This document shows, piece by piece, positions 3,001 through 6,000 of a stretch of 10,965 nucleotides of DNA; position 1 is the first letter of the stretch, and every line of letters begins with the position of its first letter. Made by a program: the position numbers. The DNA is from a virus (lineage: Duplodnaviria; Heunggongvirae; Uroviricota; Caudoviricetes), in the IMG/VR virus record IMGVR_UViG_2737471855_000015; one strand, given 5' to 3'.

Positions 3001-6000
3001 GCCGAAGCTCCTTTGGTATCAGAATTCAAATTGTCTTGCTCTTAGTTGCGCCAGCATACTTCTGGCCCTATGCACCATATAGTTGGCGGGATCAAGTTTT
3101 GCTGCTTCGCGGAGCAATGTGTCGCGAGTCCGGTTGGTTATATGACGAGTCTCGTAGGCCAGATCAAACAGCTTTCCATAGTAATCAGAGTTCAGTTCTC
3201 TCATGACGGGGTATAGCTGTTTACTGAGTTGTTGTGCTTTTTCCATCCAGAGTTGAACGTAGCAGAGCAGGATGATGTCTTCTGCTGTGAATTGAGGCTG
3301 AATATGAGGTTGTGGCGGTATAGCGCTTTTTTTGCTTCACGGTCCATAATATCCAATACCCAGCGACGGAACTCTTTGGCTACTGGAGTTGTTGCGAACA
3401 TAGCTACCAGGTGGGCACTGCGTAGAGAGAAAATACGCACATCTTTCTCTCGTAAGCTATTGTTGATCCCGTTGAACCTCATTTTGAGGTTGATTGACAT
3501 ACAAGGAGTAAACTCATCCGAATTGCGGTTGTATATCTGGGTGATTTTATCGCCGCGCGAATACTCCAGTGCAGAAGCCAAAGTCGCGGCGGTGAACCAC
3601 TGTTTGCCGTCGTGTTCGATCGTTTCAAGAACGTGGGATTTGAATATGAGTTGAGTGCTCATAGTTTTATGTCCTTGTATTTTTTGTTCAGAATCCCTGT
3701 GTTCAGCAGGGCGGTCGGGTACTTGAACACCGCATACAAGAACGGCCCGTATCCTTAGCCTTGCGGCTGTTTTTCGGTATACGCGCTACCCGACCATATC
3801 TGAAAAATGGACATAAAAAATCCGCATGACTGACGGGTGCGGCTTCCGCTTGTATAGGTGTGTTCAGCACCTTGGTGCGGAATATATCCCCGCTAATACG
3901 GATTTGTCAAATCTGGTCTTAAAACTCGAATTGTCTTGCCCGCAGGCTTTTCAGCATTGGTCTGGCCCGCTGGACAACGAAACTTGACTGGTCAAGCTGT
4001 GCCGCCTCCCGCAGTAGTGCTTCCTTGTTCTTCGTCACCATGTAGATGGTCTCAAACGCAATGTCATACAGCTTGTTCGTGTATGAGGAGTTCAGCTCTT
4101 TCATGATCGGATACAGGTGTTTGCTGAGGTCCTGGGCTTTTTCCATCCAGAGTTGCATGTAGCAGAGGAGGATGATTTCCTCGGCTGTGAATTGCTGCTC
4201 AGTTTGTACTGGCTGAATGTTGCGAAGTTTCTTTTCGCACTCGATGAAGTAGCGGCGTATCTGGCGACCTTTTTCGTTACGTTCAACCATCGCAAGCTCT
4301 TTGGCTGTGTCGAGGGTGAGGTGGTAATCCTTGCGGCGGCGGCCTGGAGTTTTCGCCAAATTTGGCGAAAATAGAATGTAGTCTAAATTTTCTACGAATC
4401 CATACTCGTTTAGCCTGGCCCGTATCCAGTTAGAAAAATCTTTACCTACCTCTAAAAATCCATGCAAATCACGCGCGTTCACCAGAAGCGTAGGTTCATT
4501 TGAGATTGTACCTTCAAACACAGGGATGAGTTGAGTGGTCATGATGACCTCCTTTGGCTTTTTTCGAGAAATGCCACCACAAGATGTGGTGCCGGGAGGC
4601 TCGAAACGGCCCAAAAGATACCGCGGACTTATTCCCCTTGCGGGTGTTGTATTCGTCGCCCTCCCGACATTGATCGGGGATGTGACCGCACACTGTGCTA
4701 TCACTGAATAACAGGCATAAAAAATCCAACACTGACGGGGTTGGTTTAATCCGCTTTTGGGAGGTTTTCGAGGCCTCGGCGCGGAGTATAGTCAGTATTG
4801 GACGCAGTCGTCAACCATCGCAAGCTCTTTGGCTGTGTCGAGAGTTAGGTGGTAGTCCTTGCGGTTGTGACCGCCTCTACCAGATGTTTGCTTTCCCAAA
4901 TTGGAAAGCAAAATATAGTCTTGATTTTCAATGAATTCGTATTCTGAAATGCGATTTGTAATCCATGCCGCAAACACCTTTTTCACGCCTAAAAAAGCAT
5001 GCAGATCGCGGGCATTGCAGAGTAGGGCTATTTCGTTGTCGATAGTGCCGTTGAATACGGGGATGAGTTGACTGGTCATGATGACCTCCTTATTTGTTTA
5101 GTTTATAACCGCCAGTTAGTAGCTGGCGGTCGGGTGTCAACTGAGCCAAATAAGAAGCTCTGGGCATATTCCCCTTGCAGGTGTTGTATTACGCCTCTCC
5201 ACCCGACCTTTGTACGGATGTAACTATGCCAAATTGCAGGCATAAAAAAGCCGCAAAGCTATCGGGTGCGGAGACCGCTTATTTGTTCAGTGCGATCAGT
5301 ATGCGATAGCTTTGGCGGATTTGTCAAATCGTGCAGTAACATCCTTTTCTTCCTTGCCATTTCTCAATGATGACAAAGGGTGGATTCGGATTGGTATTGG
5401 GACAAAAGTGAGACACACAAAGCTTTGCATCGGCTTACAAAGCTTTGCATGTTTTTCAATGTTGGGACGTGTGAGCGCAGAAATGACGGGCTATCTAATT
5501 GATTTTAAACGATACGTAACCAACTTTAAAATCTTTGCACGCCAGTTCGCAGGTTTTACAGCCAGTACAGCGGCTGGAATCGATAAAAAATCCATATTGT
5601 GTGGTCATGGGCTACTCCTTAAACCTTTTCGATCTGGACAAGATTGCTGTGCGACGGGTTTCCCTTTGCCAGCGGTGAAGGGCGGTGAGAGGTCAGAATA
5701 TTGATACTGCCGCCGTGATCGACCCGGTCACCAAACATATCCGCTTTAAGCCACGCACCTTGCCCGATGGCGGTAACGCCAGGCAGAATACGCGGAGTCA
5801 CTTTTGCGGCAATCAGCATTTCTCCATTATTGTTAAATACCCGCACGGTATCGCCATGACGGATACCGCGTGCCTGAGCATCAATGGGGTTGATCCACAC
5901 CTCTTGTGGGCAGGCCTGCTGTAACACATCAATATTGCCGTAGCTGGAGTGGGTACGCGCTTTGTAATGGAAGCCCGTTAACTGCAGTGGATAGGTTTTC

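Follow-up and report, generated by a model that had tools for sequence, protein, structure and literature searches.

Tandem palindromic repeats in the attR arm of a ynfG-integrated Stx1a prophage, a likely excisionase platform of the P22 type

The DNA analysed here (hereafter, the window) is a stretch of 10,965 nucleotides from a phage of the Caudoviricetes (IMG/VR record IMGVR_UViG_2737471855_000015), and it matches Escherichia coli (E. coli) RM10410 with 100% identity. In this strain, a 62.5-kb Shiga toxin 1a (Stx1a) prophage has been reported inside ynfG, at 1,803,652-1,866,151 (PMC10562709). From left to right, the window is annotated on the minus strand with genes for a Hok/Gef protein, a DUF551 protein, an Ea22-like protein, a DksA-like protein, a BRO protein, an AntA/AntB antirepressor and a short AntA open reading frame (ORF). 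The phage genes are followed on the right by ynfG, reduced to a stub of 28 codons, and then by ynfF, truncated ynfE and another integrase gene. Two tandem palindromic repeats are found close to the point where the phage genes meet the ynfG stub. Here, we place these repeats in one arm of the attachment site (att) of the prophage, between candidate binding sites of the integrase (Int), where they probably serve the excisionase (Xis).

Repeat unit 1 [5417-5430] and repeat unit 2 [5437-5450], neither of which has an assigned strand, are identical copies of the 14-mer ACAAAGCTTTGCAT, which occurs exactly twice in the window. Each unit contains the perfect 10-bp palindrome CAAAGCTTTG, at 5418-5427 and 5438-5447, respectively, and the centres are 20 bp apart. 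The initial annotation of this DNA had described these palindromes and this spacing, both of which are borne out by the coordinates, but it gave the unit as 13 bp, whereas the exact repeat is 14 bp long. It had also placed the units about 75 bp from the breakpoint and about 100 bp from a minus-strand promoter motif. These distances agree with the 74 bp that separate the end of unit 2 from the core sequence CTTTAAA [5524-5530], and with a promoter-like TTGACA-18-CATACT (5327-5298) that is about 90-120 bp away. Together, both units span the region 74-107 bp from the core. In 200 dinucleotide-preserving shuffles of the window, not even one copy of the 14-mer was obtained; the 10-mer with at most one mismatch gives a weak test, two matches being reached in 21 of the 200 shuffles. 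The presence of two repeats is real and far from chance. Because each unit is itself a palindrome, the two units are mutually complementary and can pair with each other.

The junction was defined by comparing the window with intact ynfG of E. coli K-12, with both ends of the record of Shigella phage 75/02 Stx, and with the other junction in RM10410, whose sequence is ccaagatCTTTAAAgttgttgc. The common core (overlap), CTTTAAA, to which no strand is assigned, is also present in intact K-12 ynfG and at attL, so that the window holds a prophage-host junction with a short core common to attB and to the other junction. On the phage, the core is embedded in a perfect 14-bp palindrome, CAACTTTAAAGTTG. 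The published borders of the prophage (PMC10562709) agree with the junction found in this way. The same phage end is 95.6% identical in 75/02 and 90.5% identical in phage POCJ13, and both of these records stop at the junction. Host DNA extends from 5608 to the core; the truncated 5' part of ynfG [5495-5608, minus strand] has a frame that runs into the phage and reaches a stop at 5495. The int gene is found at the opposite end of the prophage, where about 50 bp separate its stop codon from the core, and the junction in the window is therefore attR, with the int-distal arm, or P arm in the nomenclature of lambda. The window thus contains the right junction (attR) of the RM10410 Stx1a prophage in ynfG.

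The integrase of the prophage is a tyrosine integrase of 387 amino acids (aa) that matches PF00589, and the int region of 75/02 is 99.8% identical to that of RM10410. In 75/02, an ORF of the HTH_17 family overlaps the start of int and is 70.5% identical to Xis of P22 over 122 aa. At this position, the RM10410 annotation has only a partial helix-turn-helix pseudogene. With the xis ORF taken from the close relative 75/02, int and xis lie in the same prophage, and the element holds a tyrosine integrase together with a recombination directionality factor (RDF). Judged by sequence, the recombination module is of the P22/DLP12 Int-Xis type. In phage SEN22 (L134, 2501-2868), the xis frame is interrupted after 29 residues that are identical to P22 Xis; tblastn splits the match into two parts, and the record lacks an annotated xis gene. 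Either a frameshift or an error of sequencing accounts for the interruption, which makes SEN22 a weaker example of a cognate pair of Xis and arm.

The repeats are flanked by candidate arm-type sites of the integrase, all of which read on the minus strand. The core-proximal site lies in a conserved block [5463-5478], which is GCGCTCACACGTCCCA on the minus strand and includes TGGGACG on the plus strand at 5463-5469. On the outer side, there is a degenerate site [5409-5415], TGAGACA on the plus strand and GTCTCA on the minus strand, followed by the outermost site [5398-5404], TGGGACA on the plus strand and TGTCCCA on the minus strand. The repeats occupy the centre of the 48-bp spacer between these sites [5415-5462, minus strand], which is the proposed platform for Xis (RDF) binding and bending. 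Between the arm sites and the core there is a sequence that resembles the consensus of integration host factor (IHF), AATCAATTAGATA [5492-5504, minus strand], with one mismatch to WATCAANNNNTTR; matches to this consensus are no commoner in the window than expected by chance, so that the site is plausible by its position and otherwise weak. The motif TGRGACR has six matches in the whole 11-kb window, and three of the six fall on one strand within the 72 bp around the repeats.

Six phages, 75/02, P22, epsilon34, SfII, 2G7b and ENT47670, were lined up from the stop codon of int. Their cores differ (thrW, argU and ynfG), while the architecture of the arm is common to all of them. The common order consists of two TGTCCCA motifs in the 3' end of int, the core, about 55 bp, the block GCGCTCACACGTCCCA, 48 nt, and the doublet TGTCYCA-N4-TGTCYCA. 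In the phage of the window, the doublet on the outer side is TGTCTCA-N4-TGTCCCA and the single site on the core side is CGTCCCA. The correspondence with P22 can be followed position by position in the record NC_002371, downstream of the annotated attP core, and the two arms are collinear. The P22 arm sequence is GCGCTCACACGTCCCATCTTCGAAAGACATGCAAAGCCTTGCAAACCGATGCAAAGATTTGTATGTCCCATTTTTGTCCCA; on the int-sense strand, the 48-nt spacer is AACATTGAAAAACATGCAAAGCTTTGTAAGCCGATGCAAAGCTTTGTG in this phage and TCTTCGAAAGACATGCAAAGCCTTGCAAACCGATGCAAAGATTTGTAT in P22, and P22 ATGCAAAGCCTTGCAAACCGATGCAAAGATTTGT corresponds to ATGCAAAGCTTTGTAAGCCGATGCAAAGCTTTGT. TGTCCCA-like copies are thus found three times in the arm in the window and twice in the 3' end of int, in the same orientation, which suggests that TGTCCCA is the arm-type site of Int. 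In P22, attP is described as carrying five arm-type sites for Int, of which three belong to the P arm and two to the P' arm, in agreement with this pattern.

The arm is widespread and its spacing is fixed. Sequences similar to the element were found in 3542 of 5426 complete E. coli genomes, and K-12 carries the same element at the attR of its cryptic prophage DLP12, next to the duplicated fragment of argU and on the upstream side of ompT. When viral contigs were scanned for the conserved block, 120 loci were obtained, with 58 distinct versions of the spacer. Of 69 distinct versions on viral contigs, 68 have the same distance between the arm sites, and APSE-1, a phage of Hamiltonella whose Xis is only 45-46% identical, also has a spacer of 48 nt when counted from its sequence. 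The initial annotation had proposed to look for the motif at the ends of related prophages and to discard it if absent; the element is present there, so that this argument runs in the opposite direction.

The repeats had been suggested, as one of two possibilities, to be arm-type sites of a recombinase at the end of the element. Their place in an att arm stands, but the protein was probably misassigned, as the flanking TGTCCCA motif recurs on both arms. The repeats fill the fixed spacer between the arm-type sites, the position expected of an excisionase platform. We consider it quite unlikely that the 14-bp repeats themselves are bound by Int in this manner, even though they are direct repeats in an att arm, 74-107 bp from the core, and the 8-mer ATGCAAAG (int-sense) occurs once on the int-side arm of 75/02, in the last codons of int (L002, about 57-70). 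The 14-mer has no match on the int-side arm at up to five mismatches, and it fails as an arm-type site because it has no counterpart there. TGTCCCA, by comparison, is found in a single orientation on each of the arms, and the family conserves it even where the spacer lacks the 14-mer motif. Another short copy, the 7-mer TGCAAAG of the repeat units (minus strand), is found at 5533-5539 in host ynfG adjoining the core, where it covers the codons Cys-Lys-Asp. Neither this ynfG-side copy nor the int-side ATGCAAAG is conserved in P22, ENT47670 or epsilon34, and these extra copies are probably coincidental.

The genes that adjoin the arm vary among the phages. They are antirepressor (ant) genes in the window, gtrA in P22, epsilon34, SfII and ENT47670, and ompT in 2G7b and DLP12. 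This bears on the other possibility raised in the initial annotation, namely that the palindromes are paired operators of a dimeric repressor that controls the ant array. Perfect 10-bp palindromes two helical turns apart, with a promoter-like site about 90-120 bp away on the minus strand, would fit such operators. However, the motif is present at one locus of the window only and was not found at the other two copies of the ant leader in the window. Its homologues in P22, epsilon34, SfII, 2G7b and DLP12 stay in the same place with respect to int and the att core although no ant gene is nearby; they travel with int and att. Moreover, the palindromes are lost in some relatives while the arm architecture persists, and the element is common to P22 and Stx phages, whose repressors are expected to differ. 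Because the genes adjoining the arm differ among phages and the motif is absent at the other ant leaders, we reject control of ant from these sites as most improbable. This removes a false lead, according to which the antirepressor array would be governed from the palindromes.

The ant leaders instead match an RNA family. Two matches to sRNA-Xcc1 in Rfam, [4583-4668] and [5120-5208] on the minus strand, score 73.4 and 65.3 bits, respectively, with a gathering cut-off of 53. Each of them is located just upstream of an ORF with an AntA domain, [3919-4704] and [4792-5079], also on the minus strand. The antirepressor genes therefore seem to carry a structured RNA leader or a small RNA, and these leaders look more likely than the palindromes as the place of ant control. 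A third copy of the ant leader, which has no ORF, was found at 5234-5327 on the minus strand, with the promoter-like TTGACA-18-CATACT mentioned above and an 11-bp perfect inverted repeat that consists of segments [5254-5264] and [5304-5314]. The block GCATAAAAAAGC recurs at 4709, 4981 and 5234, with spacings of 272 and 253 bp. Going by its sequence features, the third copy could encode a short RNA of about 50 nt that ends at a T-run near 5240.

When the spacer of the window is read on the minus strand in a 10-bp phase, it can be described as a series of related heptamers, TTGAAAA, TGCAAAG, TTGTAAG, TGCAAAG and TTGTGTG. The 58 distinct spacers fall into two classes, with and without a potential hairpin that is described below, and the periodicity is found in both of them. 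In the hairpin class, self-identity peaks at 0.51 for a shift of 10 nt and at 0.44 for a shift of 20 nt; in the non-hairpin class, the peaks are 0.45 and 0.45, over a background of about 0.25 and a highest shuffled value of 0.33. A-runs occupy the same columns in the two classes, and the direct-repeat pattern with a 10-bp period is common to all 58 distinct versions. Both spacer classes thus have direct repeats about one helical turn apart. Operators of RDFs typically consist of direct repeats about one helical turn apart, with weak binding to single sites, cooperative binding and bending of the DNA (PMC7498355). For P22 Xis, bending of att DNA has been reported, as has spreading over Int sites when its concentration is high (PMC7498355). 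Since the layout of the spacer is that of an RDF operator, we read the repeats as the core of the Xis platform of attR. Our preferred reading, to which we give a probability of about 0.6, places the repeats at the centre of the attR/attP P arm and makes them the likely Xis platform in a module of the P22/DLP12 family. Xis would then be the protein that binds the spacer. Its monomers would bind the array of about five units cooperatively, and this binding would bend the arm and bring arm-bound integrase to the core during excision.

Several observations weigh against the assignment of the repeats to Xis. The N-termini of Xis from P22 and SEN22 are identical over the 29 residues that can be compared, yet P22 has a palindromic spacer and SEN22 a palindrome-free one. 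Likewise, the N-termini of Xis from ENT47670 and from contig L115 are nearly identical, yet the spacer of ENT47670 is palindromic while that of L115 is palindrome-free. As the same Xis N-terminus is found with both kinds of spacer, the exact CAAAGCTTTG palindromes are unlikely to be a specific recognition element of Xis, and the Xis family would need at most the shared periodic pattern, not the palindromes. Furthermore, head-to-tail binding of Xis monomers leaves unaccounted for the compensatory changes that keep the hairpin. On viral contigs, the comparison of Xis with spacer class comprises only 12 distinct pairs, among which L116 and L086 are hybrid junctions, and it therefore has little statistical power. 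The open papers on epsilon34, SfI, mv4, Gifsy-1 Xis and KplE1 do not give a base-level site for P22 Xis.

In the two contigs L116 and L086, an integrase of the SfX/HK446 type is joined across a transfer RNA (tRNA) core to a P arm of the P22 type with the GTCCCA motif. The arm motif in the 3' end of int is GGCACAA or GACACAA in these contigs, which look like tandem-prophage junctions or recombinants.

The segment [5413-5452], which contains both repeat units, can form a hairpin on the minus (int-sense) strand with a 17-bp stem that includes three G.U pairs and a loop of 6 nt. The folding energy is -22.7 kcal/mol (z = -5.6) for the minus strand and -16.7 kcal/mol (z = -3.0) for the plus strand. 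The 58 distinct relatives are bimodal: 13-17 of the 17 pairs are formed in 34 of them, whereas the other 24 form 3-9, no more than expected by chance. The spacer of this prophage belongs to the 34-member hairpin class. Within this class, 91% of the cells pair, a percentage that is partly circular as the class was defined by pairing; five pairs are changed on both sides, and none of 500 shuffles reaches this covariation. As an example, columns 32 and 61 hold C-G in 23 sequences and U-A in 11, and are unpaired in none. The palindromes within the units are less well kept, with 82% paired and three pairs changed on both sides. When the 26 distinct hairpins are joined in a minimum spanning tree, 22 substitutions fall in the loop where 11 are expected, and 24 events break a pair where 37 are expected, a value reached in 4 of 2000 simulations. 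All these statistics overstate independence because the sequences are related and because the class is defined by pairing. An Rfam scan of 4500-5700 also placed mir-19 on the repeats, at 26 bits against a cut-off of 50; this sub-threshold match was rejected as a generic hairpin artefact.

Such conservation raises the possibility of a role in RNA, in which the int-sense hairpin terminates or destabilises transcripts of int, like tI/sib of lambda. This would keep int transcripts out of the antirepressor genes, while in the lysogen the hairpin faces read-through from the ynfEF operon. We regard this as rather unlikely, and it would be compatible with an Xis platform. The position of the hairpin is suitable: in the circular phage genome, int and the hairpin share a strand, the hairpin following the int stop codon at about 130 nt, across the att core, and the two are parted by integration, as for the lambda hairpin downstream of int. 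The role of sib/tI is summarised in PMC2951348. The stem is stable, folds better on the minus strand than on the plus strand and is flagged as terminator-like by a scan, and the covariation, the concentration of substitutions in the loop and the rarity of pair-breaking events also favour this role, all the more as the whole stem is better kept than the palindromes within the units. In HK446 (L011, 4107-4145), whose own arm sites differ (GGCACAA), the hairpin is intact beyond the phage's own arm, next to decayed arm sites of the P22 type; further compensatory pairs are suggested when it is compared by eye with the version in ENT47670. On the int-sense strand, G.U exceeds A.C by 69 to 37, a mild preference in counts that are phylogenetically non-independent. 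Moreover, the GenBank records of SfII and epsilon34 have a putative int terminator annotated at the position of the hairpin. Genes downstream are co-directional in 21 of 52 cases in the hairpin class and in 3 of 24 in the other (p = 0.0175), a weak association that depends on crude ORF calls and on which we do not rely.

Against a role in RNA, the hairpin has no U-tract adjoining it on the int-sense strand, as a rho-independent terminator would: a T-run beginning no more than 2 nt from the stem in this sense measures 0-1 nt in all 34 sequences of the hairpin class. The T-run of 3-4 T on the other strand is part of the A-tract pattern that is shared with the non-hairpin class. No hairpin is formed in about 40% of the distinct relatives, among them SEN22 and BZS1, which are isolated phages. 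Furthermore, the E. coli Term-seq tables (PMC7815308) show no 3' end near 585,92x-585,94x, the location of the DLP12 homologue, where the upstream envY may be silent. The hairpin also differs from sib/tI of lambda in lying inside an arm, between arm-type sites, rather than outside attP. It is conceivable, though we would not expect it, that in the majority of att sites of the P22 family the platform has been shaped into a 17-bp hairpin that acts as RNA, so that one 40-bp stretch would have both roles. If this were true, integration would switch off a sib-like retroregulation of int, and the hairpin would shield neighbouring antirepressor, gtr or ompT genes from read-through.

Yet another explanation of the repeats is hinted at in the GenBank record of epsilon34, where a box of the cII/C1 type is annotated. 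In this case, TTGC-N6-TTGC would be the site of an activator for a promoter directed toward the core, antisense to int. The box is found in P22, epsilon34 and ENT47670 in the orientation of the plus strand of the window, and the window itself has TTGC ATCGGC TTAC, with one mismatch. However, it is lost in the subtype of SfII and DLP12 (TCAC-N6-TTGC) and in the non-hairpin class; there is no acceptable -10 element at the expected distance, and the promoter scan reports none there. We rejected this candidate, which is unconserved across subtypes and lacks a -10 element, and an activator box at this place is highly improbable.

With the repeats read as an Xis platform, the closest known counterpart is the P arm of attP in P22, together with those of epsilon34, SfII, ENT47670, 2G7b and DLP12, which have a homologous integrase, the same order of parts and a nearly identical spacer. 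The arm in the window differs from these in three respects. The core is the 7-bp CTTTAAA in the protein-coding ynfG, and not the 3' end of a tRNA gene; the 14-bp units are identical and perfectly palindromic, whereas they are imperfect in P22; and the cargo is an antirepressor array in place of gtrABC or ompT. More remote likeness is found in the X1-X1.5-X2 sites of lambda Xis and in the 10-11-bp arrays of 186 Apl and P2 Cox, which also consist of direct repeats spaced by one turn with an Int arm-type site adjoining, and, in lambda, are placed in the arm that becomes part of attR. From the general properties of RDFs (PMC7498355), excision driven by cooperative binding and bending would be expected here too. 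In contrast to these systems, with which there is no sequence similarity, Xis is here an HTH_17 protein of 116-123 aa, the platform lies between arm-type sites at a rigid 48 bp, and most relatives have a dyad capable of forming a hairpin. The element is an ordinary example of the well-studied attachment sites of the P22 type, with ynfG as its target, apart from the hairpin, which most relatives, though not all of them, maintain through compensatory changes.

The comparison gives base-level candidate coordinates for the attR arm of Stx1 phages that integrate in ynfG (75/02, POCJ13 and the RM10410 prophage). The coordinates of the core, the IHF-like site, the arm-type sites and the probable Xis platform can be used in planning excision, integration and curing experiments with these toxin-converting phages. 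In addition, the arrangement of an arm site, 48 bp and an arm-site doublet is a sequence signature for the ends of prophages of the P22/DLP12 type.

At the other junction of the prophage, RefSeq annotates a product of 183 aa, 'DMSO/selenate reductase B subunit' (L132, 160-711, minus strand), which continues into the 3' part of ynfG. The GTG start of this product lies in the phage DNA, 11 nt beyond the core, and the product has no first cysteine cluster; this cluster is encoded in the 5' stub, at 5525-5608 of the window. As the first cysteine cluster is left in the 5' stub, the insertion splits ynfG and does not rebuild it.

A second mobile element is present in the same operon. Its tyrosine integrase of 526 aa [9195-10775, plus strand] directly follows ynfE, and PF00589 matches in the C-terminal third only. 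The ynfE gene lacks its N-terminus, being cut at about 9128, and IS66 genes are located just past the window. The ynfEFGH operon is therefore disrupted twice in RM10410. Among the accessory genes near the left end of the window, the ORF of the Hok/Gef toxin [466-678, minus strand] matches PF01848 with 75.9 bits.

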